Assembly (NCBI GenBank): GCA_964646345.1
Contig: CAZYDU010000002.1
Location: 38,802-102,801 of the forward strand
Reading direction: 5' to 3'
From: an uncultured Lachnospiraceae bacterium
GTDB lineage: Bacteria; Bacillota; Clostridia; Christensenellales; UBA1242
DNA: 64,000 nt
In this document: positions 11,079 through 37,436 of the stretch, piece by piece
Layout: the number at the start of each line of letters is the position of its first letter
How positions within the stretch are numbered: position 1 is the first letter of the stretch
Made by a program: the position numbers and the translations under genes
Notes under the pieces: model-generated
The model's input: only the letters and a program-made list of their open reading frames with translations
Databases searched by the model: none
What the model was told of the DNA's origin: nothing

Positions 11079-11087
11079 AACCTTCTC

Positions 11088-12181: not shown

Positions 12182-12199
12182 TAATTTTTGACATATTTT

Positions 12200-13829: not shown

Positions 13830-16229
13830 TTAACAAATAATTTCAAAAGTAAAATCTTTATTTTTTTCATCAATTTGAATTACAGAATTTTCATGAAGTT
13901 CCCCACTAATAATCATATTGGCTAAAACATCTTTTATTTTTTTATCAATAACTTTTTTTATCGGTCTTGCTCCATATTCTTCATCATACCCTAAGTCACA
14001 AATCAAATTTCTGGCATTGTCAGTTATAATTACTTTAATATTCTTTTTAGCAATACGTTTGATAAATGAGTCAAGCATTAGTCCACTAATTTTCAAAACA
14101 CTTTGTTTTGATAATGTATCAAATATTACAACTTGGTCAATTCTGTTTAGTAGTTCTGGCTTGAATTTCTCACGAAGCTTATTCATCAAGAAGTCTTCAG
14201 TTGTAATTTTGCTTTCGCCTGACATTTTTTCCATCTTTTTATATTTAATCAAATCTTGGACACCATTGTTGCTAGTTAAAATAATTATCGTATTTCTAAA
14301 ATTAATATGTTTACCTTTTGAATCAGTTAGTCTTCCTTCATCTAAAATTTGCAAGAACAAGTTAAATATATCTGGGTGTGCTTTTTCAATTTCATCAAAT
14401 AACACAACTGAGTATGGATTATTTTTTACAGCATCAGTAAGTTCTCCACCAGCATCATATCCAACATATCCAGGTGGTGCACCAATTAATCTTGCAACTG
14501 ACGCTTGTTCCATGAACTCACTCATATCAAATCGCAAAATGCTGTTTTCTGAATTAAATACAACATCACTAACAGCTTTAGCAAGTTCTGTTTTACCAAC
14601 ACCCGTTGGACCTAAAAACAAGAACGAACCGATTGGTCTATTAGGGTCATTAATATCAGCCTTTGACCTTCTAATTGCACTAGCCACAGCTGACACCGCT
14701 TTATCTTGACCAATAACTCTATCGCCAATAATTTTTTCTAGATTTAAAAGTTTTTCTTTCTCAGTTGAAGATAATCTATTAACAGGAATTTTTGTCCAAT
14801 TCGAGACAACTTCTCTAATATGCTCAGCAGTTATAATATTTGCAAAATTTCCACTAATTTGTTGATTTTTAGCCTGAATTTCGGTAATTTTTTCTAAAAT
14901 TTGCGTTTTTTTATTATTAATTTCATTCGCTTTTAAATAATTTTGATTTTCAGATGACAAACAAATTTCTTTTTCTCTTTCTAAAACATTTAACATTTTA
15001 TAAAGTTCTGCAAGCTTCTCAGAATATGGCGATGATGTTAATTTAACTTTACTGCAAGCTTCATCAATCAAATCAATCGCTTTGTCTGGTAAAAATCTAT
15101 TTGTAATATATCTAATAGATAATGATACCGCCGATTCAATAGCATCATCGGAAATTGAAACTTTATGAAATTTTTCAAAAGATGGTCTAATATTTTTTAT
15201 TATTGAAATAGTATCACTTTCAGTCGGTTCTTCAACGCTGACCACTTGAAATCTTCTCTCCAAAGCAGAATCTTTTTCAATGTAATCTTTATACTCTTTT
15301 AATGTTGTTGCACCAACACAATGAATTTCTCCACGTGCAAGATATGGCTTTAAAATATCAGCTGGAGAAATTTCTCCGTCTTTGCTTCCAGCCTGAGCTA
15401 GTATATGAATTTCATCAATAAACACAATTATATTTGAATTATTCAAAATAGCATTTATTGCTTTCTTTAGTTTTTCTTCCATTGTGCCACGAAATTTTGT
15501 TCCCGCCATTAGCGAAGCAACATCTAAAGAAAATATAATTTTATTCTGCAAAAGTTCTGGCACATTCCCCTGATTAATCTTCAAAGCCAACCCTTCAACC
15601 ACTGTAGATTTTCCAACACCAGGTTCTCCAACTAAAACAGGATTATTTTTTGTTTTACGACAAAGAATTTCAATTACCCTTTCAATTTCTTCATCTCGAC
15701 CAATCACGTTTGTCATATCAGAATTTGCAAGCTTTGCATTAAGATTATATCCAAGGTTCTTTAATTCATCGGGCAAATTATCCACAACATCAACAGTTGT
15801 TTTTTGAACCTTTTTATTTTTTGAAAAAACCGCTAAATTTGGTTCAATCTTCTTTAAAACAACATTAACATCTAATCCAAAAACCGAAGAAATAATAACA
15901 AACGACTTAAATTCTTTTTTTGATAAAAGCAAATACAAAACATCTTGAATGTTTCCTTCTTGCGACACCTTATTAAAAATTAAACTAACATTTTTTGATG
16001 GTACTGCTTTTTGTCTTATTGGTTCATGCTCCTTAGAAATCAATTTAACAACTTTGCTATAATTTTGTTTATTCACACCAAAACTATTTAGTACTTTAGC
16101 ACTAAAACTTTCTTCTTCACATAAAACGCCAAAAAGCAAATGTTCAGTTTCAATAGTTCTTGAGTAAACACTTTCAGCAAATTTCATAGCACTATTAAAA
16201 ACATTTTGTATTTGTTCACTTCCCGCCAT
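13830..16229 (-). CDS. clpC: ATP-dependent Clp protease ATP-binding subunit ClpC
   Basis: Clp_N repeats and two AAA+ modules (GEPGVGKS, GPTGVGKT). Last gene of the ctsR-mcsA-mcsB operon. Confidence 0.9.
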   Translation of the reverse strand: MAGSEQIQNVFNSAMKFAESVYSRTIETEHLLFGVLCEEESFSAKVLNSFGVNKQNYSKVVKLISKEHEPIRQKAVPSKNVSLIFNKVSQEGNIQDVLYLLLSKKEFKSFVIISSVFGLDVNVVLKKIEPNLAVFSKNKKVQKTTVDVVDNLPDELKNLGYNLNAKLANSDMTNVIGRDEEIERVIEILCRKTKNNPVLVGEPGVGKSTVVEGLALKINQGNVPELLQNKIIFSLDVASLMAGTKFRGTMEEKLKKAINAILNNSNIIVFIDEIHILAQAGSKDGEISPADILKPYLARGEIHCVGATTLKEYKDYIEKDSALERRFQVVSVEEPTESDTISIIKNIRPSFEKFHKVSISDDAIESAVSLSIRYITNRFLPDKAIDLIDEACSKVKLTSSPYSEKLAELYKMLNVLEREKEICLSSENQNYLKANEINNKKTQILEKITEIQAKNQQISGNFANIITAEHIREVVSNWTKIPVNRLSSTEKEKLLNLEKIIGDRVIGQDKAVSAVASAIRRSKADINDPNRPIGSFLFLGPTGVGKTELAKAVSDVVFNSENSILRFDMSEFMEQASVARLIGAPPGYVGYDAGGELTDAVKNNPYSVVLFDEIEKAHPDIFNLFLQILDEGRLTDSKGKHINFRNTIIILTSNNGVQDLIKYKKMEKMSGESKITTEDFLMNKLREKFKPELLNRIDQVVIFDTLSKQSVLKISGLMLDSFIKRIAKKNIKVIITDNARNLICDLGYDEEYGARPIKKVIDKKIKDVLANMIISGELHENSVIQIDEKNKDFTFEIIC

Positions 16230-16240
16230 AGCAAGCTCCT

Positions 16241-17251
16241 TTATTTAATTCTTTTAGACTTTAATACATTAGCCAAAAATGTAGCTCTATATTTATCAAG
16301 TTCCGATGCCGAAACTTTCATTTCGGATATTTTTGTTAAAGAATAAGGCATAACATCTTTTATTAAATTTTCCAAACATGAAACTTCCTTAAATCTAACA
16401 AAGTCCAAAGCAACACCAATTTTAAGTTCTGTAATAATCTTTTGAGCTTCAATTTCTGAAATTTTATAACAATTCGTGGCAATACCCCAAGCTCTAAAAA
16501 CCATATCCCTTACATCATCAACATATTTTTTTGAAAGCAATTCACTACGAGCCAATATTTCCATTTCACAGATTCTAATAACAAGTTCTGTAATTTTAAT
16601 AACATAATCGCTTTCACGTTTTCCTATAGTTTGATTATTTCTAACAACAAATAAATATTCATTATCTCTAAAATTTTCATCTCTTTGCAAACTAAGCTCT
16701 ACCCATTGATTGTTTATGTCTTGTTGCAGATTTTTAATTTTTCCAGTCAAGCTTAAACCAGGTAAAAACAATTTTGCACTAGCTTCAAGTCCTGTACCAA
16801 GTTTCGATATATTTGAAGTCATAAAACCCAAGGAATCATCGAAAGCAATATCCAACTTTGACAAGATTTCATTATCTAGACCATTCAAAGTATCGTAGGA
16901 TAAAATGAGATTCAAACCTGACTTCGTACAACTTTCCAGAATATGGTCTTCTTCATTAATCATAATAGAAACATCTTCATCTTTTGAAAGAATTGTTGCA
17001 CTAAAATCTTCATTTTCTAAAATTTTTTCAGTGATAAGTTCCTTTTCTAGCATAATATTTTTATCTAATTCAGAAAGAGTTTTTAACTTATAAATTTTAA
17101 AGTCGTCATCAAGTTTCAAAACCGTATCTGCAACCTTATTTAGAACCTTTATTCCCGTTATTTCATCAAGAGTCAATGGAAAATTAAACCCAACCAAGTT
17201 GCGTCTTAATTTAATATTACTAGAAACCACTATTGAGCTATAATCTTTCAT
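16241..17251 (-). CDS. mcsB: Protein-arginine kinase McsB
   Basis: Guanidino-kinase motifs (NEEDHI, LGTGLEAS) in the operon position between mcsA and clpC. Confidence 0.8.
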   Translation of the reverse strand: MKDYSSIVVSSNIKLRRNLVGFNFPLTLDEITGIKVLNKVADTVLKLDDDFKIYKLKTLSELDKNIMLEKELITEKILENEDFSATILSKDEDVSIMINEEDHILESCTKSGLNLILSYDTLNGLDNEILSKLDIAFDDSLGFMTSNISKLGTGLEASAKLFLPGLSLTGKIKNLQQDINNQWVELSLQRDENFRDNEYLFVVRNNQTIGKRESDYVIKITELVIRICEMEILARSELLSKKYVDDVRDMVFRAWGIATNCYKISEIEAQKIITELKIGVALDFVRFKEVSCLENLIKDVMPYSLTKISEMKVSASELDKYRATFLANVLKSKRIK

Positions 17252-17598
17252 TAAATAGAACTCCTTAATTTTTCAATCTGATTTTTTAGCGACTCAGCCA
17301 AAATAAAATCTTCCGCTTCAACCGCTTCTTGTTTTTGCCTTTCTAGTTCCTTAATTTTGTTATCCATTTTCTGCTTTGAAAAACGTTTTGTTGCAACTTT
17401 TCCAACATGGTTAAAACAACCTTGTTTTTGCAAAAGATTATTTCTAATCTCATCTTGAAAAGTAACATAACAATTACAACAACCAACCAGCCCACTAGTC
17501 AAAATATCCGAAAGCGAAGTATTGCAGTTAACACAATGTTTTTCACTTGACATCTTATCTCTAAACATAATGTTTGAATTATCATTAAAATACAACAT
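17251..17598 (-). CDS. mcsA: McsA-like activator (Zn-finger CxxC pairs plus UVR motif)
   Basis: CVNC...CCNC cysteine pairs and a C-terminal UVR-like EDFILAESLKNQIEKL. The start is uncertain. Confidence 0.65.
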   Translation of the reverse strand: MLYFNDNSNIMFRDKMSSEKHCVNCNTSLSDILTSGLVGCCNCYVTFQDEIRNNLLQKQGCFNHVGKVATKRFSKQKMDNKIKELERQKQEAVEAEDFILAESLKNQIEKLRSSI

Positions 17599-17606
17599 AC
17601 TTCCCC

Positions 17607-18065
17607 CTAATTATTCATAAGCTTGGCTATAACATTTTTGAATGCCTTAGCTCTAACTTTGTCACGAACCGTAAAAGGCATTGCAAGCGAATCATCTGAT
17701 AAAGATGTTTCAACTAGTTCCATTTCTCTTTGATTTAAAATATTTTCACTAACCAATTTATCCAAAATCTGACAAAATCTTTTTTCATTGAGTTCATCAC
17801 CAACACTTTCTAAAAATAAAGTTTTTAGATAATCCGAGTTAGAATCAGATTTGATTTTTGTTATTTTAACATAACCACCACCGCCACGTTTGCTTTCGAC
17901 TAAAAATCCCCTATCAACAGTAAATCTAGTTTCCAAAACATAATTAATCTGACTAGGAACACAAGAAAAAAACTCTGCAAGCGAATTTCTTGTTATATCA
18001 ATAGAATCATTATCTCCAAGTGTGGTAATAATAAATTTCTCAATTTGGTCTGAAATATTTGCCAT
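17607..18065 (-). CDS. ctsR: Class III stress gene repressor CtsR
   Basis: MANISDQIEKFI... with the RGGGGY glycine loop (SKRGGGGYVKI). ATG at 18065 with a GGGGGAG RBS; the track ORF start at 18137 is upstream of the promoter elements. Confidence 0.85.
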   Translation of the reverse strand: MANISDQIEKFIITTLGDNDSIDITRNSLAEFFSCVPSQINYVLETRFTVDRGFLVESKRGGGGYVKITKIKSDSNSDYLKTLFLESVGDELNEKRFCQILDKLVSENILNQREMELVETSLSDDSLAMPFTVRDKVRAKAFKNVIAKLMNN

Positions 18066-18082
18066 AAAATCTCCCCCATGAA

Positions 18083-18137
18083 AATCAAAGTTAGTCAATA
18101 CACAATTATAATACAATAATCCAAAGTTTTTAGTCAA
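18083..18137 (-). promoter_or_regulatory. ctsR operon promoter with candidate CtsR operator
   Basis: On the minus strand: TTGACT (18137-18132), an 18-nt spacer, then TATTAT (18113-18108). The direct heptad repeat AATCAAA-GTT-AGTCAAT at 18083-18099 resembles the CtsR box (A/G)GTCAAANAN(A/G)GTCAAA. Confidence 0.45.
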
Positions 18138-18218
18138 ATAAAACTGCTCAAATTTCCAGTCATGGCAATTTTTTGCAACAAAAAAGGAAATAAAATTTAA
18201 TTTTACTTCCCCTTTATT

Positions 18219-19076
18219 TTACTCTTTTACAAAAATTATACCAACAGTTCCAGGACCTGCATGAGCACCAATAACCGGTCCAACTTCAAACCTGCGAATT
18301 TTCACATTTTTACCTGAGTTTCTAATTTTTTCAGCAAGTTCATCGCCAACTTCTTTGTTGCTAGCATCTAATATGTAAACTTCATATTTATCATCATTTA
18401 AATACTCTTTATTAAACTTTTCATACAAGAAATCTATTGCTTTTTTCTTTCCCTTAACCACAGTCAACTTTTCAAGTTTTCCATCATCAGTAATAGTTAA
18501 AATAGGCTTTAAATTCAACAATGTCCCCATAACATTAGACACTGCCGAAATTCTACCACCACGTCTTAGATATTGAAGTGAATCAACATAAAAATACAAA
18601 CCAATCTTTTCTCTAAAGGTTTTCAAAAATTCCAAAACTTGTTCATCACTCGCACCTGAGTTGTGAAGTTTGCAAGCTTCTATTGCTTGAATCCCAGCAC
18701 CGATACTAATGTTTAATGTATCAAACTCAATAAGTTTTCTTTCTGGATATTTTTCTTTCAATATCTCAAGAGCCTTGTGCATAGAATCAAAAGTACATGA
18801 AAGTTGTGATGAAAAATGAACATAGAAAATATCTTCACCACTTTTAAAAACTGGTTCAAAATAATTCAAATAGTCTTGAGTATTAAGTGCTGAAGTTGTA
18901 GCAACTTTTCCATCTCTCATTTCCTTATAAAACGCTTCAAAATCGGTATTTTTACCAAAATCATAAACATATTCTTGCCCGTTAATTGTGTATGGCATAC
19001 CGATAACATTCATTTTTAGATTTTCAGCATCAGTAAACCACATTTCGCAATCCGTGTCCGTAAAAAATACACTCAT
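18219..19076 (-). CDS. DegV family fatty-acid-binding protein
   Basis: DegV length and motifs (TDTDCEMWF..., TSALNT, RGGRIS). Confidence 0.9.
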   Translation of the reverse strand: MSVFFTDTDCEMWFTDAENLKMNVIGMPYTINGQEYVYDFGKNTDFEAFYKEMRDGKVATTSALNTQDYLNYFEPVFKSGEDIFYVHFSSQLSCTFDSMHKALEILKEKYPERKLIEFDTLNISIGAGIQAIEACKLHNSGASDEQVLEFLKTFREKIGLYFYVDSLQYLRRGGRISAVSNVMGTLLNLKPILTITDDGKLEKLTVVKGKKKAIDFLYEKFNKEYLNDDKYEVYILDASNKEVGDELAEKIRNSGKNVKIRRFEVGPVIGAHAGPGTVGIIFVKE

Positions 19077-19085
19077 AATTCACCC

Positions 19086-19898
19086 CTAAAAAATTTCTAA
19101 TTCGCTAAATTGTTCTTCATAAAGTTTTCTATCAAAGTCATTATAAACACAAAAAACAACATTAATTGGATAATTATGTTCTTCTAGCCACTGCGAAACA
19201 GTTGTGACAGCAATCTTAGATGCTAAGTCACGTGGGAATTTAAATTGTCCTGTTGCGATACAACAAAAAGCTATACTTTTAAACCCATTCTCCACCGCCA
19301 AGTCTAGACTAGATTTATAACAATTTGCAAGGTCAATTTTATCATGGTATGACACTTTACCTAAAATCAATGGCCCTACAGTATGGATTATGTAGTTTGC
19401 TGGCAAATTATAACCTTTCGTAAGTTTCGCTTTTCCATTAGGTTCTGGTCTATAATTTTGTTTAGACATCAAATAGTTTAATTCCTGACGAATTTGAAGT
19501 CCACCTGCCGACATTATAACATTATCAATAGATGAATCGCAAGGTTCAAAACTGCCAAGCATTCTTTGATTTGCAGCATTAACAATCGCATCAGCACGAA
19601 GTGTTGTGATATCGCCTTGAAAAATAGACATGTTTTTTGAATACATCAAGTTATTCACATCAACAATAATCTTATGTTCACGTTCATAAGATAAAATCTC
19701 ATCTTGCAAACGCATAAATTCAGCTGAAAGTGGTTCAGGTTTTCTTTGATTAGATAACCCCCTAAAAATCACACGTTTATCGCCAATAGAAAGCTCTTGC
19801 AAATGAAATTTATTGATATCAATATTTTCATCTTTGCAAAGAATTGCAATTAGTCTATTAAGTTTACCATCAAGTTCTTCGATTGTATATTCTTCCAT
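19086..19898 (-). CDS. Macro-domain protein (ADP-ribose / O-acetyl-ADP-ribose hydrolase type)
   Basis: IFQGDITTLRADAIVNAAN and GGLQ...HTVGP macro motifs behind an N-terminal extension of about 90 aa. Start set at the internal ATG 19898; the track start at 19934 is a TTG. Confidence 0.75.
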   Translation of the reverse strand: MEEYTIEELDGKLNRLIAILCKDENIDINKFHLQELSIGDKRVIFRGLSNQRKPEPLSAEFMRLQDEILSYEREHKIIVDVNNLMYSKNMSIFQGDITTLRADAIVNAANQRMLGSFEPCDSSIDNVIMSAGGLQIRQELNYLMSKQNYRPEPNGKAKLTKGYNLPANYIIHTVGPLILGKVSYHDKIDLANCYKSSLDLAVENGFKSIAFCCIATGQFKFPRDLASKIAVTTVSQWLEEHNYPINVVFCVYNDFDRKLYEEQFSELEIF

Positions 19899-19954
19899 AA
19901 TCTCTCCAATACAAAAATTATAACACTTAGTCAAAAATTTATCAAATAAATGTG

Positions 19955-20347
19955 TTACATTTCCTTAACTGACTCATTGGATTTTTTCTTTTTGCGTTTT
20001 ACAACAACATTACCATTAATATTTTCAACTTCATTTAAAGTTTCAGCCAAAATGCCAATTTCATCTTTTAATTTATCAGAATCTTCTCTAAGTTCCACAA
20101 CTGCAGTTGTAATGCTTTGCATACTTTCTTCTTCTCCAGTAAGTTCTTCAAGTTTACTAGCCGTTTTTTCATACTCATCAAACAATTTTTCAACTGCTTT
20201 TACTTTTAAAACATAATTTTTCAAGCTTTTTACAACATCTTTCCTATCTAAATTAAAATCCACTTCAAGTTTGGTACTTTGAAGTTTATCAACAATTTCA
20301 TCTTCTAATTTTCTAAACTTTTCAACTAATTCTTCTTCTCTTTTCAT
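19955..20347 (-). CDS. Hypothetical acidic coiled-coil protein
   Basis: E/K-rich heptad-like sequence with a basic tail. Lies 7 nt downstream of 20355-20822. Confidence 0.45.
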   Translation of the reverse strand: MKREEELVEKFRKLEDEIVDKLQSTKLEVDFNLDRKDVVKSLKNYVLKVKAVEKLFDEYEKTASKLEELTGEEESMQSITTAVVELREDSDKLKDEIGILAETLNEVENINGNVVVKRKKKKSNESVKEM

Positions 20348-20354
20348 TTTTCAC

Positions 20355-20822
20355 CTACAAATTATTTTTCCTTAATAAATAATTTATCCTTTCTTTTTGA
20401 CCATCAATAATCACATCAATTCGACTCAAAAATTTATTCAGTCTTTGAATAAGCTCCTTTAGTGCTGTAAATTCTTCTACTATAAATTTTTCTCCTTGTC
20501 CAGCAAAATTTGTATATTTAAAATACTCATGAGCAAAATAATTACGTTTTTCAAGTAATGTTTTCAATTCAATAATTTCATCTTTATTCAAACTTTGTGA
20601 ATCTCTCAAAACACCAATCATCGCCCCAAAAGTCATTGTTCGCATCTTTTCTTTGATATATCCAGCATCATCAACGACTTGCTCATAATCATTTTTTGAC
20701 ATTTTAACGTGCCTGCCAAATTCCTTGATGATTTCACTATTTTCACACAAATTCCCAAGTTCAAGTTCGATTTTTTGGGTTAACTCAACTATTTTTCCTA
20801 TTGCACAATAAATTCTATTCAT
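20355..20822 (-). CDS. Hypothetical protein with RNxxAH (HEPN-like Rx4H) motif
   Basis: LLEKRNYFAHEYF at residues 90-102 in a predicted all-helical 155-aa protein. Confidence 0.4.
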   Translation of the reverse strand: MNRIYCAIGKIVELTQKIELELGNLCENSEIIKEFGRHVKMSKNDYEQVVDDAGYIKEKMRTMTFGAMIGVLRDSQSLNKDEIIELKTLLEKRNYFAHEYFKYTNFAGQGEKFIVEEFTALKELIQRLNKFLSRIDVIIDGQKERINYLLRKNNL

Positions 20823-22648: not shown

Positions 22649-22705
22649 TGGTGGGAAGAAGTGGATTCGAACCACTGAAGTCGAAAGACGACGGATTTAC
22701 AGTCC
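22649..22705 (-). repeat. attL: orphan 3' 57 nt of tRNA-Tyr (direct repeat copy 1)
   Basis: Identical to 37031-37087 at every base I compared. Sequences diverge immediately outside on both sides. Confidence 0.85.
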
Positions 22706-22896: not shown

Positions 22897-23040
22897 TCAA
22901 AAGCTTTTTTCGATTTTAACCCTATTCTTCTTTAATTCTTCCATTGAACATTCAAACATTGCACATTCTTTACAATAACATTCATATCTGTACTTTACAT
23001 ATTCTTCCGGGCTTAATTCCCATTCTTCTTCTAATTCCAT
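22897..23040 (-). CDS. Small Cys-rich ORF (47 aa) coupled to rep
   Basis: Own translation: MELEEEWELSPEEYVKYRYECYCKECAMFECSMEELKKNRVKIEKSF. A GGAG overlaps the rep stop. The ORF is below the track size cutoff. Confidence 0.35.
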   Translation of the reverse strand: MELEEEWELSPEEYVKYRYECYCKECAMFECSMEELKKNRVKIEKSF

Positions 23041-23051: not shown

Positions 23052-24179
23052 CTAAAATACCGGGTCATCATCTATCGGCTCAAATATTTTCATTTGCTTT
23101 CTTAAATCTTCTGCAGGTACTCCTAAGTACTTTGTGTCAAGTTTCTCCCACATACTTGGCGGAAGTATTCGCTTCAATTCATCTAAAGATTTATCTGCTT
23201 TTTCCAATATAATCTTTTCTCGACTTTCATACCTTAATATAAAATGTAATCTCTTTTCAAAACCTTGCCATGATTTATAATCACTACTTTTTTGAAATGA
23301 ATACTGCTCAAGTGGAGACCAGTTCGAAGATATAAAGACCGTATTATAATTGCCAAACTTATTATTATATCTACAACTTAAATCTAATGGGTACGCATCA
23401 GCTAAATTTAAAAAGATTGAAAAATCTATTTGTGAACGGAACTCGTCAAATATTACTACATTCTGATTTCTAAACTCGTCAAAATAGTTTTTCTCATATT
23501 GCTTAACCCAATATGCTTTGCTGTTTCCAAAGTACTTAAATAAATTATAAGTTTTTCCAACTCTCGAGGGACCATAGATATATACACATATAAAATCTTG
23601 TTTTTGAACATCTTCCATATCGTGCCTTAATAACTCTTGTCTCATTCGTTGAATTTTATCCAGATTCTTAAAAAAATGATTTGGATATGCTTTACTAATT
23701 TCATAATCAGTTGCACCATTCCTTATCATTTCAAGTAAGTTTGTTATATCCGTCCTTGCTCTTTCTTCAGCAAATACTCCAAGTTCATAAGGTCCTGAGA
23801 CTCTTGTATCAGATTTTGTACAATAATCACGACATTGTACATTACTACCTTTTGCCTTTTCAATATGTGCTTTCGGAAATAATTTCTTTATTGTCGAAAA
23901 TCTTTTACCAATCGAAAATACTAAAAACATTTGAAAATGTTCGGTTTCTTTTTCCTTTCCCCTTTCTCTCTGCAGAGCTGAATATTTAAAATGTTCTAAA
24001 TGTTCAATATACTCACACATTTCTTCGTCAGACTCGGTTGAATTATTAATTGTTAACATATATCGTCTAGCTTGTGAATTTTCGTCAATAATTTCTTCTT
24101 CTTTAACTATTTCAGAATCAGCATTAATTTCTTCTTCTTTTTTATTTTCTGAAACAGCTTCAATTTTTTCTTCTTCCAT
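23052..24179 (-). CDS. rep: Rolling-circle replication initiator, HUH endonuclease plus SF3 helicase (CRESS-type Rep)
   Basis: Motif I YMLTINN (aa 40-46), motif II HFQMF (81-85), motif III YCTK (119-122). Walker A GPSRVGKT (203-210), Walker B VVIFDEF (241-247), motif C ISSN (283-286). Confidence 0.8.
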   Translation of the reverse strand: MEEEKIEAVSENKKEEEINADSEIVKEEEIIDENSQARRYMLTINNSTESDEEMCEYIEHLEHFKYSALQRERGKEKETEHFQMFLVFSIGKRFSTIKKLFPKAHIEKAKGSNVQCRDYCTKSDTRVSGPYELGVFAEERARTDITNLLEMIRNGATDYEISKAYPNHFFKNLDKIQRMRQELLRHDMEDVQKQDFICVYIYGPSRVGKTYNLFKYFGNSKAYWVKQYEKNYFDEFRNQNVVIFDEFRSQIDFSIFLNLADAYPLDLSCRYNNKFGNYNTVFISSNWSPLEQYSFQKSSDYKSWQGFEKRLHFILRYESREKIILEKADKSLDELKRILPPSMWEKLDTKYLGVPAEDLRKQMKIFEPIDDDPVF

Positions 24180-24217: not shown

Positions 24218-24472
24218 TTAAAATATAAATACAACCCCCAAAATTACATTTAACATTAAAATAATTAACTCAAAAATTAAATATATCTTTCTTCTAAACA
24301 CAACCGACTTAATTATTTTTAAAATCGTTATAATCAGGTTTAAAACCAAAACCCCAATCGCAAATGGACTAAGTAAAACCATTCTCACAGCTTCATTAAC
24401 CCCATATGCTCCGAATAATGGAAGAAACACCCAACATTCGAATATCAATAATAATATTTGAATTATAATCAT
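24218..24472 (-). CDS. Small membrane protein (84 aa, about 3 TM)
   Basis: ATG at 24472 with an AAGGAG RBS. The longer track ORF starts at a TTG inside the iteron array and is unlikely. Confidence 0.5.
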   Translation of the reverse strand: MIIIQILLLIFECWVFLPLFGAYGVNEAVRMVLLSPFAIGVLVLNLIITILKIIKSVVFRRKIYLIFELIILMLNVILGVVFIF

Positions 24473-24487
24473 ATATACTCCTTTTGT

Positions 24488-24603
24488 GCGACACAGTGTG
24501 ACTTTTGCGACACAGTGGCGACACAATGCGACACAGAGAAACGATTTTAAAAATCGGCTCTAAAGTTCGATAAAATAACCATTTACAAGAATTGTGCGAC
24601 ACA
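24488..24603 (-). repeat. Five iterons (plus strand GCGACACA; minus strand TGTGTCGC)
   Basis: Copies start at 24488, 24507, 24518, 24528 and 24596, all in the same orientation. The last one abuts the ori stem. Confidence 0.65.
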
Positions 24604-24604
24604 G

Positions 24605-24643
24605 TGACGCAGTTGCTAGGTAATACTACCCGCAACTGCGTCA
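24605..24643 (-). promoter_or_regulatory. Putative rolling-circle origin stem-loop with TAGTATTAC nonanucleotide
   Basis: Perfect 12-bp stem (24605-24616 / 24632-24643). The 15-nt loop reads GGGTAGTATTACCTA on the minus (rep-sense) strand. Confidence 0.7.
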
Positions 24644-24845
24644 AAAATTCTTTCGCACATTCTCTCTTTTTAACGACTTTCCAAGTCGTCCTAGTAAGCT
24701 TTCAGCTTATTATTAATAAGAGAAATCTTTTTCTCAACGCAAAAATTGCTCTTAAAAACCCTGTTTTTATCTTACGTATAAATTGCACATTGCACTTTCT
24801 CTCCAGGTTTTAGTGTAAAAAATAATCTTATTTTTAATTATCCTG

Positions 24846-24947
24846 TTGACTTTTCTCAAATCTTGCATATAATATTAAGTATCAAAGCGAAGAAATTCGC
24901 CATGCTGTTTCAGACAGCCAAAAGTGGAAGAAATTCCACTTTTTTTA
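24846..24947 (+). ncRNA. Candidate small RNA (promoter, three hairpins, T-run)
   Basis: TTGACT (24846), a 16-nt spacer, TATAAT (24868). Hairpins at 24887-24900, 24904-24918 and 24923-24940, followed by T7. The last hairpin could equally be the minus-strand terminator of 25015-25299. Confidence 0.3.
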
Positions 24948-25014
24948 TTGCAAATATTTTCCAATAAAAAAATAATGACGTTTCTTTATTTTCTTTTTAC
25001 CTATATCTTGTATC

Positions 25015-25299
25015 TTAGAAATATCTAACATTCTTTATTGGTTTTTTATTTACACCCGACCAACGGGAAAAATTTGTATCAAAATAAGGCAAAGCATAAG
25101 TATTTCCTACACGAACTTGTTTTATTTTCTTACGATTTATCTTTTTATCCCTATCTTCTAACGAAGTTACTACATTTACATCACACATTCCATTATTATT
25201 AACTTCACGTATATAAACATAATGTCCACCAGGTCGTGGAATACCAAGATATTTATTCTCTATGTACCCTATTTGGTTCTTTATTTTCTTATAATTCAT
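25015..25299 (-). CDS. Hypothetical small basic protein
   Basis: ORF inside the element operon. No recognised family. Confidence 0.45.
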   Translation of the reverse strand: MNYKKIKNQIGYIENKYLGIPRPGGHYVYIREVNNNGMCDVNVVTSLEDRDKKINRKKIKQVRVGNTYALPYFDTNFSRWSGVNKKPIKNVRYF

Positions 25300-25320: not shown

Positions 25321-25749
25321 TTATCCAAAATCACTATCAAACTCACTTTCTTCCTGTATCGGTTCAATATTTGCTACCTGCTTCTGAACTATTACTGCAG
25401 GAACTAAAATATCAGGTTTTTGCTCAGGCGGTTTTTCAGAACCTTTTTCGGGTTTCTTATCCGTTTCTTTTTGATCTTTCATTATCTTTTTCATTTTTGC
25501 CCATAACCTAGAATGAAACATTTTCCATATCCAATTATGTGGCATTGTTTCAAAAGCTGTACGGAGTTCCAACTCCCTTTTTTCTCTTTCAAAAAGGGGT
25601 TTTTTATAAAGCTTTGTATATTCTCTTATAGACTTTTCTACAAATTTTATAGACTTTTCCGGCAAAGCATTAAGTCCAAATGAATCAGATAATTTATCAT
25701 ATTCTCCATAAATAAAACTACTTAAATCAGAAAAATCGTCAAATTCCAT
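25321..25749 (-). CDS. Hypothetical protein
   Basis: ORF with a GGGGGA-type RBS, directly downstream of the Zot-like gene. Confidence 0.45.
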   Translation of the reverse strand: MEFDDFSDLSSFIYGEYDKLSDSFGLNALPEKSIKFVEKSIREYTKLYKKPLFEREKRELELRTAFETMPHNWIWKMFHSRLWAKMKKIMKDQKETDKKPEKGSEKPPEQKPDILVPAVIVQKQVANIEPIQEESEFDSDFG

Positions 25750-25775: not shown

Positions 25776-26615
25776 TCATGCTACATCATTAACTTTTTTC
25801 TTTAAATAACCGGCAGGTGCTATAAAGTAATTTTCATTATTAAACTTTGTAATACCTTCCATTGAAAATTGATAACCACTTTCAGTGAAATATTCATATT
25901 TCAATTTCAAATTTTTTGTATATGAAACATCATAAAAAGCAAGCTTATTAGAATGACTATCATAGAAATTAAAAACATTAACATTAGTTGAATATTCAAC
26001 AGTTTTTCCAAGGTCTGAGTTAGCACCACTTTCTTTTGCCATTTGATATTTTTCAGCTGTTTCACAAGACTCAAATTCATGTGTTTTCCAAGTAATTTTA
26101 ATAACCCTACCAAACTCATCTTTCTTAACATCTAGCTTATCTATTACTATAAATTTATCACATAAAGCTCGAATATTTACGTCTATGTTTGCTAACCTTT
26201 GAGCTGTTAAATAAATCTTATAATCGTTATGTCTATGAATTTGAAAAAATCCATAAACTTCTTTTCGTAAATACATGCTCAAACGACTATCAAAATAACG
26301 TTGAGCTTCATCTAAAAATATACTTGAACCAACAGGAAAAAATTTTGTTTCAAAAAACTCATTGGGTAGTCCAATTTCAAAACCACTTACTTTATATCTA
26401 CTCCACTTTTTATTGATTTTAAAATCATAATCAGCAAAACATAAATGTTTTTGTGGTGGAAGCTCTAAATCAGAATAACCAACACATCTTAAATGTTCTA
26501 TTTCTCGTTTTGCAATATAATAGTCTTTAACATTATAAACCATTGTTTCATGTTGAAAATTAGTTAATAAAGCGGTTTTTCCGCTTCCACACTTACCAAT
26601 AATTCCAATCATCAT
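25776..26615 (-). CDS. Zot / pI-like P-loop morphogenesis ATPase
   Basis: Walker A GKCGSGKT at the N-terminus, Walker B IFLDEAQRYF, then FQIHRHNDYKIYLTAQRLANIDVNIR. This matches the Zot-family HRH...D...TQ...IR pattern. Confidence 0.75.
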   Translation of the reverse strand: MMIGIIGKCGSGKTALLTNFQHETMVYNVKDYYIAKREIEHLRCVGYSDLELPPQKHLCFADYDFKINKKWSRYKVSGFEIGLPNEFFETKFFPVGSSIFLDEAQRYFDSRLSMYLRKEVYGFFQIHRHNDYKIYLTAQRLANIDVNIRALCDKFIVIDKLDVKKDEFGRVIKITWKTHEFESCETAEKYQMAKESGANSDLGKTVEYSTNVNVFNFYDSHSNKLAFYDVSYTKNLKLKYEYFTESGYQFSMEGITKFNNENYFIAPAGYLKKKVNDVA

Positions 26616-27160: not shown

Positions 27161-30007
27161 TTACTCTTTTACATAAATGTTTGATGTTTGGTCATTTTCT
27201 GAAAATAATGAAATAGCAAAAATATCAGAAGTGATATCAGTGGAACTAGTTAATAAAGAAATAGAAAGTTCTTTACCTATTAATTCACTATCACCTGAAC
27301 CTATAAACTCAATATTTGCAATAGTTTCGCCATTTTCATTTAATTCTGTAGACTTAATTTTCCAACATACATTCTCATTGAAAATATCTAAAATAGTTGT
27401 TTCAGTATATTTATTAAAACCAATAGAATTATTAATCTTAGAAATTAAATCATCTAAAGAAACATAGCCAAATTTATTATTAGAAATTAAATCATTATAA
27501 TTAGCTTTGATTGTAGGAGCTTCACTTATTCTAATTGAATAAACAGAACTATATTCATTAGTTAAAGGAAAATCAGAAGAAGTAATAAAATTCCCACCTT
27601 CATAAAACTGAACTTGAAAATCAATTTGCGAAACAGTTTCTGGAACTGTCCAAGTATATAATCCAGTATCACTATTAAAAGTATTAACTAGACCATTTGT
27701 TACTATTGAAAAATCAGCGGAATCTAGTTCATTGCATGAGAATGAGCAACCTTGAAAATAATAATTATATGAAATTTCATTAAATTCATAATGATTTAAT
27801 TCTTCATTCCATGTATAAAAATATATTCTCTTAAAATCAAAATCGTCTCTCATATCATAAACATAAATATATTTAGAAACATAGGTAATATAGTTATTTA
27901 AAATATTATCCGGTACTACGTTTTCTTCAGAAAAAGAATTTTCATATAGAACATAAGAACCTAAACCATTATCACTATAGTTTTTAAAAAGAGTACTATA
28001 AGTTTTACTACCATAAGTAACATAAGTAGTGGCAATAGACTCAAGACTATTTGAAGAAATATCGTCAGTTATAACCAATCTCTCAAATTCAATCTTATAA
28101 TGTTGAGTAGAATATTGACAAGCGACAACTATATCAGCTTTTACATTAGAAAATTTTAAAAGAACATAAGAATAATCTTTTTTATAATCTGAATAATTAA
28201 CATCAACATTTAAATTATTATCTTCAAAATTAAATTCATTTTCATTATAAGAGCAATTAAAAATCTCTAGATTATCATAAGCTGAAGATAATGAGCCTGT
28301 AGATGTTAAAGTTCCATTAAATGTAATCATGTGAGTTGTTTGGTCAAAACTTAATACATATGTAGAAGTTTTTTGAGAAGAACCGGGAATAGTATAAAGA
28401 ATATAAATTTTTGAAAGATATTCCCCAGCATTATAAGGTAAAATTAAAGAATAAACATTAGTATCTTCAATAACTTCTTTTTCACTTACAAAATCAGCTA
28501 TAGAACCTGTAGACTCACTTAAATTATTAATAGAACTAGTATAATTTGTTGAAGAAAAAACACTATAAAGACCTTTTCCTGTAGAGTCAGAATTATTATC
28601 GCCTATAGCAAAAGAATAGGTTGGTAATTTTTCAAACACTGCAATATATGTTACCTGTTCAGTTATAGCTGTTGTTTCTATGTCTTCAACTAAGTTTTCT
28701 CCGTCAACCGACCAACCTAAAAAGGTGTAACCTGTTTTTGTTGGTGCTTCAGGTAAAATTATATAATCATTCTTTTCTACGTTTTTAGAAAAATATACAA
28801 CATCATCTACCATAAACTGAACTAGTGGGTGCTTTTCATTCCAATAATAAACGTAAGATTTTTCAAGTATTTCTCGACTGGTCATATCTTCCGTTACTCC
28901 ATGAGAACTATATGCAACTACATAAACTCTCTTTGCGGTCTCAATATCCACTTCGTCTTCACTTTTTCCACTAATTGCTGAAGCAATAGAAATTATAAAC
29001 TTGTCGTTTGTTGCTCTAAAATTATCTTCGTAAACTCCTACTGCTGTATCATTCATTCCAAGATTTGGATAAATCCATAATTGTAAATCCTGGTCGGTTA
29101 ATAAGCTTGGGTCAGATGTATAATTTAAATAATTCCAACGTAAAGAAATTATTATTTCACTTACATCTTTTAGGTCATAAGGCAAGTCTTCTTTCGTTAA
29201 AATATTACCTGAATTATCATAATAATAAAGACTATCTAGACTACTATTATAGCTTGCTTCAGAAAGTGTTTTTGGGTTCATGGTGTCGAACTTTATTACA
29301 TATTTTGTAAATTCATAATTTTCTTTTATTGGATTAGAAAAAATAATTTTTTCGTCAAAATCCTGAATAAAATTAAAATCAGATGTATAAGTTACACCAT
29401 TATATGTTAAGCTTTCTCCAGCATTCAATTTAACATCTACCTGCAGGGCATTTACTTGCCATACTGCATAGTATTCAGTTTCAGCATTTTCAACAAGAAC
29501 TTCAGATAAATCTATAACATTTTCTCCGTCAACCGACCAACCTAGAAATTTATAGTTTGCACGTTTTGGCTCAGAAATTGTAAGTGTATCTAAGGTTTCG
29601 CCTTTAATATATCCATTTCTGCACACTAGCTCTTGACTATAGTTATTTACAGGAGTCTTTATGTTATAAAAGTTTACATAATTTAAATCTTCATAAATTC
29701 CGTATATTCTTTGGGAAAAACCAGTAGTTACTTTATTACCTTCAATTAAAGTTTTCCCGTCAAAAGAATAACCCATAAAACGCTTATCTTCAACTTCAGG
29801 TAAGTCAGCTAGTGTATACTCAGTACCTACAGGTATAACCACTTTATTAACAATTTCATTGTCTACCACTACAGATAAAGTAGCTGTATTTGACTCAGAT
29901 ACATATGTATCAGCAGTTGTAGATACATTTACTTTAAAATCATTTTTATCAAAATATGAATTCCACAATGCCACAGCTTCAGAACTGCCTTTTGTAGATA
30001 CTACCAT
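27161..30007 (-). CDS. Large surface/adsorption-type protein with Listeria-Bacteroides (Flg_new-type) repeats
   Basis: Repeated GY(T/K)FLGWSVDGEN...Y(I/Y)AV(F/W) modules, also visible as a DNA repeat near 28694 and 29519. The frame stays open for 97 more codons upstream, to 30298. Confidence 0.7.
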   Translation of the reverse strand: MVVSTKGSSEAVALWNSYFDKNDFKVNVSTTADTYVSESNTATLSVVVDNEIVNKVVIPVGTEYTLADLPEVEDKRFMGYSFDGKTLIEGNKVTTGFSQRIYGIYEDLNYVNFYNIKTPVNNYSQELVCRNGYIKGETLDTLTISEPKRANYKFLGWSVDGENVIDLSEVLVENAETEYYAVWQVNALQVDVKLNAGESLTYNGVTYTSDFNFIQDFDEKIIFSNPIKENYEFTKYVIKFDTMNPKTLSEASYNSSLDSLYYYDNSGNILTKEDLPYDLKDVSEIIISLRWNYLNYTSDPSLLTDQDLQLWIYPNLGMNDTAVGVYEDNFRATNDKFIISIASAISGKSEDEVDIETAKRVYVVAYSSHGVTEDMTSREILEKSYVYYWNEKHPLVQFMVDDVVYFSKNVEKNDYIILPEAPTKTGYTFLGWSVDGENLVEDIETTAITEQVTYIAVFEKLPTYSFAIGDNNSDSTGKGLYSVFSSTNYTSSINNLSESTGSIADFVSEKEVIEDTNVYSLILPYNAGEYLSKIYILYTIPGSSQKTSTYVLSFDQTTHMITFNGTLTSTGSLSSAYDNLEIFNCSYNENEFNFEDNNLNVDVNYSDYKKDYSYVLLKFSNVKADIVVACQYSTQHYKIEFERLVITDDISSNSLESIATTYVTYGSKTYSTLFKNYSDNGLGSYVLYENSFSEENVVPDNILNNYITYVSKYIYVYDMRDDFDFKRIYFYTWNEELNHYEFNEISYNYYFQGCSFSCNELDSADFSIVTNGLVNTFNSDTGLYTWTVPETVSQIDFQVQFYEGGNFITSSDFPLTNEYSSVYSIRISEAPTIKANYNDLISNNKFGYVSLDDLISKINNSIGFNKYTETTILDIFNENVCWKIKSTELNENGETIANIEFIGSGDSELIGKELSISLLTSSTDITSDIFAISLFSENDQTSNIYVKE

Positions 30008-30288
30008 ATCAGTAGAATAACGATTAAATCCGAATGTAAACGTTAATTCATCAGTTAATTTATAAACATTTCCTACATCATAAAAAGCATAATTATAAGT
30101 ACAAGTTAAATGATTGTTTGAATAATCTACAACTTTACATGGCTCGTCATTAACTAATACTTTATAGTTCTCATTTGAATCAAATTTTAAGCTTTTATCA
30201 GAGTGAAACTCAGCTTTATAAAGTGTATCATCAGAACCAGTTAAAACTACTTGGTCAAAGTCAAAATCTATATTTATTACATTATTAG

Positions 30289-30543
30289 TTATTTCAACTT
30301 ATTTGGTTTTATAATATCTTCAATTTTACCAAATATTCCACCTTCAGCGGTGTAATATTCATTTATTTTAATACCACTATACACACCCGAACAGCATATT
30401 AAAACTACACATAAACTAGCTACAATCATTCTGGAACCAGGTACTTTTATTAGAAGAACTACAACACCAATTATTAAGGCAATTAATAAAGAAAAGTTTA
30501 AAATGTCTTGAAATGAAATTCCAAATATCAACCAACTAAGCAT
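30289..30543 (-). CDS. Small membrane protein (84 aa)
   Basis: Two to three hydrophobic segments. Overlaps its upstream neighbour by 8 nt. Confidence 0.5.
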   Translation of the reverse strand: MLSWLIFGISFQDILNFSLLIALIIGVVVLLIKVPGSRMIVASLCVVLICCSGVYSGIKINEYYTAEGGIFGKIEDIIKPNKLK

Positions 30544-31843
30544 ATTCTTCTACCCCCTGTACTTTAAATTCTCCAAATGTATTTGTTTCAAAACCACCAA
30601 AGGTTATTCCACATTTATTCAGGTAATCGGTATCTATTTCTACTTGAATAATAATGTCATTAATGTAAGAGTCATAGTAGAATTTAAAATCAGTCTTTAA
30701 TGCAAATTTATAAACACCAACATCTTCAGTTGCAATTAATTCAAAATCTCTAATGTTTTCATTAAATTCAGCTTTTACAATGGACTTTCCATAAAGATAT
30801 GAACCGGTTTCTGCATCAGGATTAATATTTGCTGAACCATTCAACATTCCCATTAAACTTTCAGAAGATTTTGTCATGTCTCCATCATGCACATTAACTC
30901 GAATAATATAATAACTTTGGATTTCTTTTACTATTTTATTGTAATTATCCCCATCAAGAGATACTTTTGAATAACTTGAACCATCATACTCGTAATAATC
31001 GAAATAATCGCCAAAGTTAAAGATAATGTCTTGACTTGTACCTTTTTCTACACCACGAATTGAGTTGTAGAGAATTGTTGAAAAATAATTTAAGTCAAAT
31101 GATGCATATCCAGAATAACAACTATATGTATGTTTATTTAAAATTAAATAAGTTTGCGTAGAAACCTGTTCATAATAATCAACCTTGAATGTTTCATCGA
31201 GATTGTTTTTTACTTCTTTTTTTAAATCCATGTTATCGACAGAATAATAATAATCATAATAAGTTTTATCGCCTTTGAGTTTCATACCATAAAGTTTTTT
31301 ATTTTCTTCGTCACCAATTTGTATTCTAAAAAGAGAATCAGTATCAAGTGGACTTGCCATATCATTATTAATAGTAGTTTCAAATCCGTCAGCAGAAGCA
31401 TATTGAAATGAATTTAAATATTTAAAACTAGAATTTTGATATAAAAATGAATAACCGATAGTTTTTTCTTGAATTGGCCAACCTTTAGACCACTCCGACT
31501 CAGAACGTTTATCAAACCCAGTTCGATTAAAATAACTTAAGCTAAAATCTAAGCCTTTATCAGAATTTGCAACATATTGCACACCTTTCGAATAAAATGC
31601 ATTTTGGTCTTCGTCTCGCACATAATTAAAAACCACTTCAAATACATTATCATATAAATTAAGCTCTATAAATGGCTTCTTTTCTGTTGTTCCGTCAGCT
31701 TTCTTTATTTGCTGATACCCAATATTAAATGTTTGCGATACTATCTTATCCGGTGCTGTGTTAAGCATGTAAACATACCACACGTCTACACCTATTGCGA
31801 TAAATGATATAATCGCCATAAAAAATATTAAAAATTTCTTCAT
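30536..31843 (-). CDS. Hypothetical protein with N-terminal signal/anchor
   Basis: N-terminus MKKFLIFFMAIISFIAIGV, followed by a 400-aa Y/N/D-rich region. Confidence 0.5.
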   Translation of the reverse strand: MKKFLIFFMAIISFIAIGVDVWYVYMLNTAPDKIVSQTFNIGYQQIKKADGTTEKKPFIELNLYDNVFEVVFNYVRDEDQNAFYSKGVQYVANSDKGLDFSLSYFNRTGFDKRSESEWSKGWPIQEKTIGYSFLYQNSSFKYLNSFQYASADGFETTINNDMASPLDTDSLFRIQIGDEENKKLYGMKLKGDKTYYDYYYSVDNMDLKKEVKNNLDETFKVDYYEQVSTQTYLILNKHTYSCYSGYASFDLNYFSTILYNSIRGVEKGTSQDIIFNFGDYFDYYEYDGSSYSKVSLDGDNYNKIVKEIQSYYIIRVNVHDGDMTKSSESLMGMLNGSANINPDAETGSYLYGKSIVKAEFNENIRDFELIATEDVGVYKFALKTDFKFYYDSYINDIIIQVEIDTDYLNKCGITFGGFETNTFGEFKVQGVEEYA

Positions 31844-32591: not shown

Positions 32592-32774
32592 CTATTTCGT
32601 GCCTATTTTTGAGAAAAATGTTAAACCAATTTTTTCGAAAATATTAACATTTATCCAATCAGTTATATTTGGCAACCAGTTAAAAGCTTTACACAAGATT
32701 GCTACTAATGTTAAAACTAAAGCTATTAAAACTAGAGAACCTAGTATAATTAATATTCCTTTTAATACCTTCAT
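32592..32774 (-). CDS. Small single-TM protein (candidate virion coat protein)
   Basis: 60 aa with a strong GGGGGAG RBS and one long hydrophobic helix. Sits upstream of the structural block. Confidence 0.4.
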   Translation of the reverse strand: MKVLKGILIILGSLVLIALVLTLVAILCKAFNWLPNITDWINVNIFEKIGLTFFSKIGTK

Positions 32775-37030: not shown

Positions 37031-37087
37031 TGGTGGGAAGAAGTGGATTCGAACCACTGAAGTCGAAAGACGACGGATTTACAGTCC
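37031..37087 (-). repeat. attR: direct repeat copy 2 (3' part of the intact tRNA-Tyr)
   Basis: Identical to 22649-22705. Confidence 0.85.
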
Positions 37088-37116: not shown

Positions 37117-37152
37117 AAAAATAAAACTAACAATCATAAGATTATTAGTTAA

Positions 37153-37227: not shown

Positions 37228-37229
37228 AT

Positions 37230-37420: not shown

Positions 37421-37436
37421 ATGATATAAAAAACAT

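Follow-up and report, generated by a model that had tools for sequence, protein, structure and literature searches.

Background

Kazlauskas, Varsani, Koonin and Krupovic (2019) defined pCRESS1-9 and argued that CRESS-DNA virus Reps (CRESS, circular, Rep-encoding, single-stranded) derive from such bacterial replicons, the p4M-like cluster pCRESS1-3 being sister to circo-, nano- and smacoviruses. Their main text reports no element with known structural proteins, although the supplement includes a pCRESS2 element of Hungatella with a Zot gene. Here we analyze a stretch of 64,000 nucleotides (the window, from whose first nucleotide all positions are counted) of contig CAZYDU010000002.1 from an uncultured Lachnospiraceae bacterium (GCA_964646345.1), in which the open reading frame (ORF) at 23052-24179, rep, encodes a protein of this kind. 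Its sequence and surroundings make it likely, in our judgment, that the protein initiates the rolling-circle replication of a temperate element of 14.4 kb that is inovirus-like (of the filamentous-phage type) and integrated at a tRNA-Tyr gene.

In filamentous phages, according to a 2026 taxonomy commentary, Rep_trans initiators are the commonest, and HUH enzymes are a minority that has been acquired several times. Roux et al. (2019) placed 56 sequences in inovirus protein family iPF_00203, described as 'RCR + helicase' (RCR, rolling-circle replication) and Viral_Rep. Tisza et al. (2020) reported ctbe30 and ctbc27, two circular genomes from macaque stool that carry a CRESS-type Rep together with ZOT and inovirus-like capsid genes; the stool had been enriched for virions, and the authors point to prophage relatives in Clostridia-type bacterial chromosomes. 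GenBank also holds 'bajarodino' viruses with the same combination, a name that our literature search did not find in any paper. The hybrid of CRESS Rep and Zot is already documented by these three sources, and the window locus is a further example of it.

A CRESS-type Rep with HUH nuclease and SF3 helicase domains

The rep gene, its motifs and the regions of its product are as follows (SF3, helicase superfamily 3).

23052 to 24179, minus strand: rep, CRESS-type Rep of 375 amino acids with an ATG start (ORF list, Pfam, PDB search, alignment, model)
24042 to 24062, minus strand: motif I, YMLTINN, residues 40-46
23925 to 23939, minus strand: motif II, HFQMF, residues 81-85
23814 to 23825, minus strand: motif III, YCTK, residues 119-122
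23550 to 23573, minus strand: Walker A, GPSRVGKT, residues 203-210
23439 to 23459, minus strand: Walker B, VVIFDEF, residues 241-247
23322 to 23333, minus strand: motif C, ISSN, residues 283-286
Residues 1-35: disordered acidic tail
Residues ~36-134: HUH nuclease
Residues ~137-188: helical linker/oligomerisation region
Residues ~195-330: SF3 helicase
C-terminal end: disordered acidic tip, ...DDDPVF

The product scores 51.6 bits (E = 1.1e-13) against Pfam Viral_Rep (PF02407), for which the cut-off is 26, and 33.4 bits (E = 6.7e-8) against RNA_helicase (PF00910), for which it is 21.5. When we searched the PDB with phmmer, the Rep of porcine circovirus 2 (PCV2; 7LAR) was matched at E = 1.9e-21 over residues 38-295, that is, across nuclease and helicase; no PHROGs family matched. 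The HUH motifs follow one another as LTINN (residues 42-46), HFQ (81-83) and the single-tyrosine YCTK (119-122), and the catalytic residues T43, N45, N46, H81, Q83, Y119, C120, K122, G203, G208, K209, E246 and N286 are invariant in an alignment of 27 family sequences. The original prediction had named six Rep motifs in circovirus-type order. All six are present, at the positions listed above, which we checked, and the match to 7LAR runs through both domains.

We built an AlphaFold model on the 27-sequence alignment and compared it with the PDB using Foldseek. The model has a mean predicted local distance difference test score (pLDDT) of 81.4 and is disordered only at residues 1-29 and 362-375. 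Its top matches are all CRESS Reps, including the vientovirus Rep 9pqq (full-length, E = 2e-13) and PCV2 7lar. The M-Rep nuclease of faba bean necrotic yellows virus (FBNYV; 6h8o) matched with a TM-score of 0.90 and a root-mean-square deviation of 1.4, and the PCV2 ATPase (8xms) with TM-scores of 0.80-0.84. After the CRESS Reps come SF3 helicases, namely Rep68 of adeno-associated virus, enterovirus 2C and norovirus NS3. Because the profile, sequence-to-structure and fold searches agree, the N-terminal domain belongs within the HUH superfamily, as a CRESS-type nuclease, and the C-terminal domain within SF3. The Pfam, PHROG and Foldseek searches found no sequence or fold relationship to gpII or Rep_trans, in keeping with what had been predicted.

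A conserved origin upstream of rep

The region between rep and the Zot-family gene described below contains these elements.

24605 to 24643, minus strand: plus-strand origin hairpin (stem/loop search, fold energy, conservation)
24596 to 24603, minus strand: fifth iteron (TGTGTCGC), directly 3' of the origin hairpin
24488 to 24542, minus strand: four tandem iterons with the octamer core TGTGTCGC, conserved in related locus L050
24858 to 24957, minus strand: conserved non-coding block of three consecutive hairpins (conservation; fold z = -5.0)

The origin hairpin lies on the rep strand, 426 nucleotides upstream of the rep ATG. Its stem is a perfect 12 bp, TGACGCAGTTGC / GCAACTGCGTCA, and its 15-nucleotide loop, GGGTAGTATTACCTA, holds the nonanucleotide TAGTATTAC at 24620-24628. 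As single-stranded DNA (ssDNA) the hairpin has a fold energy of -21.8 kcal/mol (z = -6.95). All five copies of TGTGTCGC in the 64-kb window fall within 24488-24603, against 0.36 copies expected, and the four tandem iterons end 16 nucleotides ahead of the ATG of the 84-amino-acid ORF that precedes rep.

To see whether this arrangement recurs, we inspected 48 related genome loci (numbered from L001 onward and collected by tblastn and iterated hidden Markov model (HMM) searches) together with a phage record and a metagenome contig. About 44 of these sequences have, upstream of rep and on its strand, a hairpin whose loop includes (N)AGTATTAC; InterPro, in its text for PF02407 as reproduced in the supplement of Kazlauskas 2019, gives AGTATTAC as the Rep nick site. 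The distance from hairpin to rep ranges from a few tens to a few hundred nucleotides, and tandem repeats directly follow the hairpin. The stem sequences vary among the loci, yet pairing is always kept. Of the 48 TAGTATTAC sites, 42 were enclosed by at least 8 perfect bp, compared with 1 of 431 sites for thirty permuted 9-mers (810 kb). Judged from these comparisons of sequence, the hairpin and iterons are a conserved, functional CRESS-type origin.

The structured intergenic region extends from 24473 to 25014 (~540 nucleotides) and comprises the origin and the triple-hairpin block. The latter, ~95 nucleotides long, is ~96% identical in L050 while its flanks have diverged, and contains a terminator-like match at 24920-24943. 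It may be a complementary-strand origin, a packaging signal or a terminator.

Integration at a tRNA-Tyr gene

The boundaries of the element and the genes at its far end are listed here (att, attachment site; HTH, helix-turn-helix).

22649 to 22705, no strand assigned: attL, a 57-nucleotide perfect direct repeat of the 3' part of tRNA-Tyr, 100% identical to 37031-37087
37031 to 37116, minus strand: tRNA-Tyr (GTA), of which the 3' 57 nucleotides are attR (tRNA and repeat searches)
35880 to 36875, plus strand: tyrosine integrase (Pfam Phage_integrase, 5e-8; phrog_1 integrase, 1.4e-32)
35187 to 35510, plus strand: Cro/CI-type HTH regulator (Pfam HTH_3, 1.2e-17)

The two att repeats, at 22649-22705 and 37031-37087, are identical at 57 of 57 positions and spaced 14,382 nucleotides apart; ARAGORN called no tRNA at attL. 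The original prediction placed the Rep in a bacterial chromosome, which is right as far as it goes: more exactly, the gene lies within a 14.4-kb prophage that is site-specifically integrated at tRNA-Tyr. From 34438 down to 22897 all genes but one are on the minus strand.

Six tRNA genes (Tyr, Thr, Phe, Asp, Met and Pro; 37031-37610) form a cluster that adjoins the prophage and accounts for a local GC peak of 0.41. The exact Rep is also present in a Logan metagenome contig, SRR14160743_15805 (L051), of 14,386 nucleotides.

Linkage of rep to a Zot-family ATPase

The gene that connects the element to filamentous phages lies 1.2 kb upstream of rep.

25776 to 26615, minus strand: Zot/pI-family morphogenesis ATPase of 279 amino acids (Pfam Zot, 8.9e-9; phrog_197 'Zot-like toxin', 1.6e-16)

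Pfam Zot was matched individually by 13 of 19 homologues of this ATPase. When a profile of the 19 was compared with the PDB, the N-terminal domain of Zot (2R2A) was the best match at 5.5e-16, against 3.4e-5 for HerA. We considered an FtsK/HerA identity and rejected it on this difference; the Pfam Zot, PHROG Zot and 2R2A matches together make an FtsK/TraB-like transfer ATPase unlikely.

The linkage is conserved. In 25 of the 48 related genome loci a Zot homologue lies 0.8-1.7 kb upstream of rep. These Zot-linked loci come from diverse uncultured Clostridia, Acutalibacteraceae, Lachnospiraceae and Christensenellales, often with HTH and integrase genes at the far end. Zot, hairpin and Rep also follow one another in this way in bajarodino virus 74, a complete circular genome of 10.2 kb that was obtained from rodent faeces and deposited as a member of Inoviridae. 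With a Zot/pI ATPase in the same element and this order in 25 of the 48 loci and in a circular viral genome, the proposal that the Rep is tied to a virion-assembly module stands.

In L007, two tandem copies of a related Zot-Rep prophage (5701-12251 and 14263-20813) repeat with a period of 8,562 nucleotides, and a TAGTATTAC hairpin and a rep gene are present in each. It is well known from integrated filamentous phages such as CTXphi that rolling-circle replication can start from tandem arrays without excision.

A second set of loci (L024, L025, L027-L039 and L041-L047) has Reps 30-35% identical to that of the window and comes from Oscillospiraceae, Izimaplasma and Faecalispora sporosphaeroides DSM 1294. 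These are compact elements that keep the TAGTATTAC hairpin and iterons, often with an integrase gene directly after that of the Rep, and no Zot was detectable in them within 10 kb. They match the 'integrated plasmid' picture of pCRESS2.

The Rep family is well populated: an exhaustive HMMER search of 1.84 billion cluster representatives returned 146 at E <= 1e-30, and 5,625 when the limit was set to E <= 1e-10. A scan of IMG/VR with the family alignment found nothing from the clade of the window Rep; its matches were distant (24-30% identical) and mostly CRESS contigs of 2-3 kb.

Comparison with known systems

We transcribed the Rep sequences of pCRESS1-3 from the supplement of Kazlauskas 2019. 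In a BLAST ranking the window Rep was closest to pCRESS2, with pCRESS3 lower and pCRESS1 much lower. It is 35% identical to WP_036328238, the pCRESS2 Rep of Izimaplasma HR2 (L024; E = 1.6e-57), and matches a second pCRESS2 Rep, SCH60086, at E = 7.7e-55; its score is 180 bits with pCRESS2 and 80 bits with the PCV2 Rep. In a neighbour-joining tree from BLOSUM62 distances, a crude tree that carries no support values and was used only to establish uniform Zot linkage, all members of the window Rep clade are Zot-linked. The clade adjoins the basal pCRESS2 sequences SCH60086 and WP_036328238, and PCV2 and one pCRESS3 Rep join nearby on long branches. By sequence comparison, the pCRESS2 group thus appears closest to the window Rep.

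The window Rep has in common with SCH60086 and WP_036328238 an HxQ motif II and a YCxKxDTR motif III. Like the window element and its relatives in metagenome-assembled genomes of Clostridia, pCRESS2 elements integrate site-specifically in Firmicutes by means of a tyrosine integrase, and the one listed with a Zot gene belongs to Hungatella hathewayi. Most pCRESS2 Reps differ, however, in having an HTH-type motif II, YxxK and an extra G-KW...EK insert after motif III, and most belong to what have been described as plasmids that lack structural genes. The window Rep, by contrast, belongs to a separate, consistently Zot-linked sub-clade and is at most 35% identical to any listed member.

With the 'RCR + helicase' inoviruses the window element shares a Viral_Rep nuclease fused to an S3H/SF3 helicase, its position beside a Zot/pI ATPase and a small genome. 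The likeness extends to the order of Zot, TAGTATTAC hairpin and Rep in bajarodino virus 74; iPF_00203 and ctbe30/ctbc27 are likened to the element by their descriptions. There are also differences: the window Rep is just 32-36% identical to those of bajarodino viruses (for example, PQ006121) and falls in another clade of the neighbour-joining tree, the element measures 14.4 kb as against 5.7-10.2 kb, and it has its own tyrosine integrase, which targets tRNA-Tyr.

Reps of Circoviridae and Nanoviridae (7LAR, 6WDZ and 6H8O) have the same order of domains, the same folds and corresponding motifs (FTLNN/HLQ/YCSK and GPPGCGKS/VIDDF/ITSN). Their origins, too, have a hairpin upstream of rep whose loop, on the rep-sense strand, contains the nonanucleotide TAGTATTAC, with repeats directly 3'; in porcine circoviruses, hexamer repeats stand directly 3' of the origin stem. 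In contrast, the window Rep is only ~25-30% identical to these proteins, and the window element is a prophage of a bacterial host with an integrase, a Zot partner and no jelly-roll capsid gene. [quoted passage not shown]

The gpII protein of Ff phages (Phage_CRI) and Rep_trans initiators have the same task, which is to nick the plus-strand origin in the intergenic region and provide circular ssDNA for extrusion, and their gene likewise adjoins a hairpin-rich intergenic region; the difference is that no search related them to the window Rep. We know of no classical filamentous-phage initiator with a fused helicase; these initiators depend on host helicases of the Rep/PcrA type.

Proposed mechanism

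The starting points of the mechanism were observed here: the family, fold and motifs of the protein, the anatomy and conservation of the origin, the integration site and the conserved linkage to Zot. What we infer, from the Reps of circoviruses, nanoviruses and geminiviruses and from Ff phages, is where the loop is nicked, the polarity of the strand, autoregulation, the filamentous form of the virions and that this copy is active. On this analogy, the tyrosine integrase would recombine the 57-nucleotide att repeats and release a circle; alternatively, to judge by the arrangement in L007, replication could begin on tandem copies. Rep would bind the TGTGTCGC iterons beside the origin hairpin and nick the loop at TAGTATT/AC, with a metal ion held by the H81-x-Q83 motif, and the 5' end would become covalently joined to Tyr119 of YCTK.

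The SF3 domain is then expected to hexamerise and unwind the duplex, elongation from the 3'-OH being carried out by a host polymerase. With one round completed, Rep would rejoin the displaced strand by strand transfer, giving circular ssDNA in the sense of rep and the morphogenesis genes, and the Zot/pI-type ATPase, with membrane-inserted coat proteins, would export it. Because the four iterons lie over the 5' region of the operon formed by the 84-amino-acid ORF and rep, downstream of them, Rep probably represses its own transcription.

Accessory features of the Rep gene

The original prediction drew attention to an acidic N-terminal tail and to a small Cys-rich ORF coupled to the rep stop codon. 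Both are real, and both are lineage-specific accessories rather than features of the family. The tail has 15 aspartate or glutamate residues among its first 35, with pLDDT below 50 at residues 1-29, and in the 27-sequence alignment many homologues are without it. A 36-nucleotide tandem duplication, 78% identical, lies inside it at 24086-24157, so the tail probably grew by local duplication.

22897 to 23040, minus strand: ORF of 47 amino acids directly after rep (no Pfam or PHROG match)

This ORF starts 11 nucleotides past the rep stop, and a GGAG overlaps the stop codon (TAGGAGATAAAATTATG). Its counterpart in L050, whose Rep is 84% identical, has 71% identity, and more distant related loci do not have it. 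In the comparison with this one relative, three of the four cysteines are conserved. We considered a zinc-ribbon, which the ORF may encode, with just three cysteines kept in L050.

At the other end of the protein, where the tail is disordered in the AlphaFold model, 53 of 119 full-length Rep homologues carry [LIMV]-P-[FW] after an acidic run, most commonly D-L-P-F (...DDLPF). Many others end in D-x-I-F or D-P-V-F, and the window Rep ends in ...IDDDPVF (23055-23072). The conserved C-terminal tip of SSB is DDDIPF in Escherichia coli and DDLPF in Gram-positive SsbA (PMC5531588). The Rep tip resembles it, and we speculate that it may recruit SSB-interacting replisome proteins.

Other genes of the element

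The remaining genes are listed in order of position.

24218 to 24472, minus strand: hydrophobic protein of 84 amino acids with ~3 membrane segments, first gene after the iterons and just upstream of rep
25015 to 25299, minus strand: ORF of 94 amino acids, conserved in close relatives
25321 to 25749, minus strand: ORF of 142 amino acids with an acidic C-terminus, after the Zot gene; 38-49% identical in L002 and L003
26747 to 27085, minus strand: basic protein of 112 amino acids, conserved in L001 and L017
27161 to 30286, minus strand: large surface/adhesion-like protein with Listeria-Bacteroides repeats (Pfam Flg_new, 7.6e-12)
30289 to 30543, minus strand: membrane anchor of 84 amino acids with two segments, 44% identical to residues 1-80 of the L015 protein
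30536 to 31843, minus strand: protein of 435 amino acids with an N-terminal signal/anchor; homologues in L003, L007, L015, L022, L023 and L026
31977 to 32435, minus strand: conserved protein of 152 amino acids, encoded in the window and in 12 related loci (13 sources in all); without a match in Pfam or PHROG
32592 to 32774, minus strand: ORF of 60 amino acids with one hydrophobic helix; one weak homologue, in L015 (E = 1.9e-4)

The hydrophobic protein at 24218-24472 has a homologue in L050 and no Pfam or PHROG match. The 435-residue protein is a candidate minor coat or adsorption protein. Small hydrophobic, coat-like candidates are the 60-residue ORF and the ORFs of 84 residues, none with a Pfam or PHROG coat match; the 60-residue ORF at 32592-32774 is a weak candidate for the major coat protein.

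For the large surface protein, the called ORF spans 27161-30007 (948 amino acids), and its frame is open upstream to ~30286. Near-identical 29-nucleotide repeats at 28695 and 29520 within it encode the motif GWSVDGEN. As an adhesin-like receptor-binding protein (27161-30007), it is of a size unusual for a filamentous phage.

Alternative explanations

Several observations weigh against an inovirus-like element. No major coat protein was identified by homology in Pfam, PHROG or the related loci, and when the element's proteins were compared with PHROGs, Zot and the integrase were matched and most others had no family. With its 14.4 kb the element would be among the larger inoviruses, at the high end of their sizes. 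No membrane segment was found in Zot, either in the window copy or in 26 full-length homologues (245-310 amino acids), by a Kyte-Doolittle hydropathy scan (19-residue window, threshold 1.6), which is not a dedicated predictor; the maximum for the window copy was 0.89. Canonical pI has one membrane segment, and the pI calls of Roux 2019 required one or two. A separate small protein may supply the anchor. The Logan contig L051 might have represented an excised circle, an interpretation that we rejected: the contig ends 30 nucleotides inside the att repeat and its length fits the prophage interior plus k-1 overlaps (k = 31), so that a graph break at the repeat explains it. Finally, a frame change of 1 nucleotide at 30286-30291 parts the 84-residue anchor from a surface protein of ~1,040 residues. 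The missing coat protein, the membrane-less Zot and the frame change leave some weight to two other readings.

The first is that the prophage is decaying: Rep and origin are intact by sequence, no infectious particles are made, and Rep is a relic or serves episomal maintenance only. The frame change is what speaks for this, because it splits the surface-protein gene; either this prophage copy may be defective or the assembly wrong. Anchor and ectodomain form a single ORF in five related loci (L003, L007, L015, L022 and L026). In these fused homologues residues 1-80 match the anchor and the following residues match the frame that leads into the 948-residue ORF; the open frame upstream of that ORF aligns with residues 82-344 of the single L015 ORF. 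The fused homologues also explain an apparent drift of the iterated anchor HMM onto the 948-residue ORF. The frame change may reflect prophage decay, an assembly error or programmed ribosomal frameshifting. The remaining ORFs, among them those of the integrase, HTH regulator, Zot and Rep, are undamaged, as are the catalytic residues of Rep, the hairpin, the iterons and the att repeats, identical at every position. We regard decay as unlikely.

The second is that the element is an integrated plasmid of the pCRESS2 type that makes no virion, with Rep replicating the excised circle and the Zot-like ATPase serving DNA segregation or transfer, a role that has been proposed for FtsK-like ATPases in other pCRESS elements. 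Nearly all members of pCRESS1-8 are integrated plasmids without known structural proteins, many with FtsK-like ATPases (Kazlauskas 2019). The window Rep is nearest to pCRESS2, its relatives in Oscillospiraceae and Izimaplasma consist of little more than Rep and integrase with this origin and lack Zot, and the two gaps named above, in Zot membrane segments and coat proteins, also speak for a plasmid. The ATPase, however, fits Zot in Pfam, PHROGs and the 2R2A comparison ahead of HerA, and the module also encodes adhesin-like proteins and proteins with a signal or anchor, as is typical of adsorption proteins. Complete circular genomes from faecal viromes with the order Zot, origin and Rep have been deposited as Inoviridae, such genomes were recovered from virion-enriched preparations (Tisza 2020), and Roux 2019 places this type of Rep among inoviruses. 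A plasmid is, in our view, distinctly improbable.

That the locus is the sequence of a eukaryotic CRESS-DNA virus, or a chimeric misassembly of one with bacterial DNA, is suggested by motifs and a nonanucleotide of the same type as in circoviruses and nanoviruses, and is for practical purposes refuted by the precise tRNA att duplication, by the same architecture in 48 bacterial genome loci on contigs of up to 463 kb and by pCRESS2 scores far above that of the PCV2 Rep, besides the bacterial-type integrase and HTH genes, the ribosome-binding sites ahead of the element's genes, and a GC content (~30%) and GC skew that continue through the element and the flanking host genes (MetRS, PolA and Gmk).

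Conclusions

Reps of the window type are central to the debate on the origin of eukaryotic CRESS-DNA viruses. A bolder reading, which we consider quite unlikely, is that the Zot-linked Rep clade is a long-standing lineage of bacterial viruses that shares its whole cis-acting module with circo-, nano- and smacoviruses and has added an SSB-like tip as an adaptation to its hosts. If this were true, the replication module of eukaryotic CRESS viruses (the TAGTATTAC hairpin with its 3' iterons) would have had true ssDNA phages, and not only capsid-less plasmids, as its source or as a stage on its way, and the acidic ...D-L-P-F tip would have been gained in bacterial hosts, where it would draw SSB-interacting replisome proteins to the nicked origin. 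In our literature search we found neither the passage of the module through ssDNA phages nor an SSB-like Rep tip described.

The window locus leaves unchanged the picture drawn by Roux 2019 and Tisza 2020, to which it brings two small, testable additions: the SSB-like tip of Rep and Zot homologues without a membrane segment. It is a well-delimited and apparently recent example of the combination, and its perfect att sites, intact Rep and origin and attached morphogenesis module would make it a convenient template for experiments.

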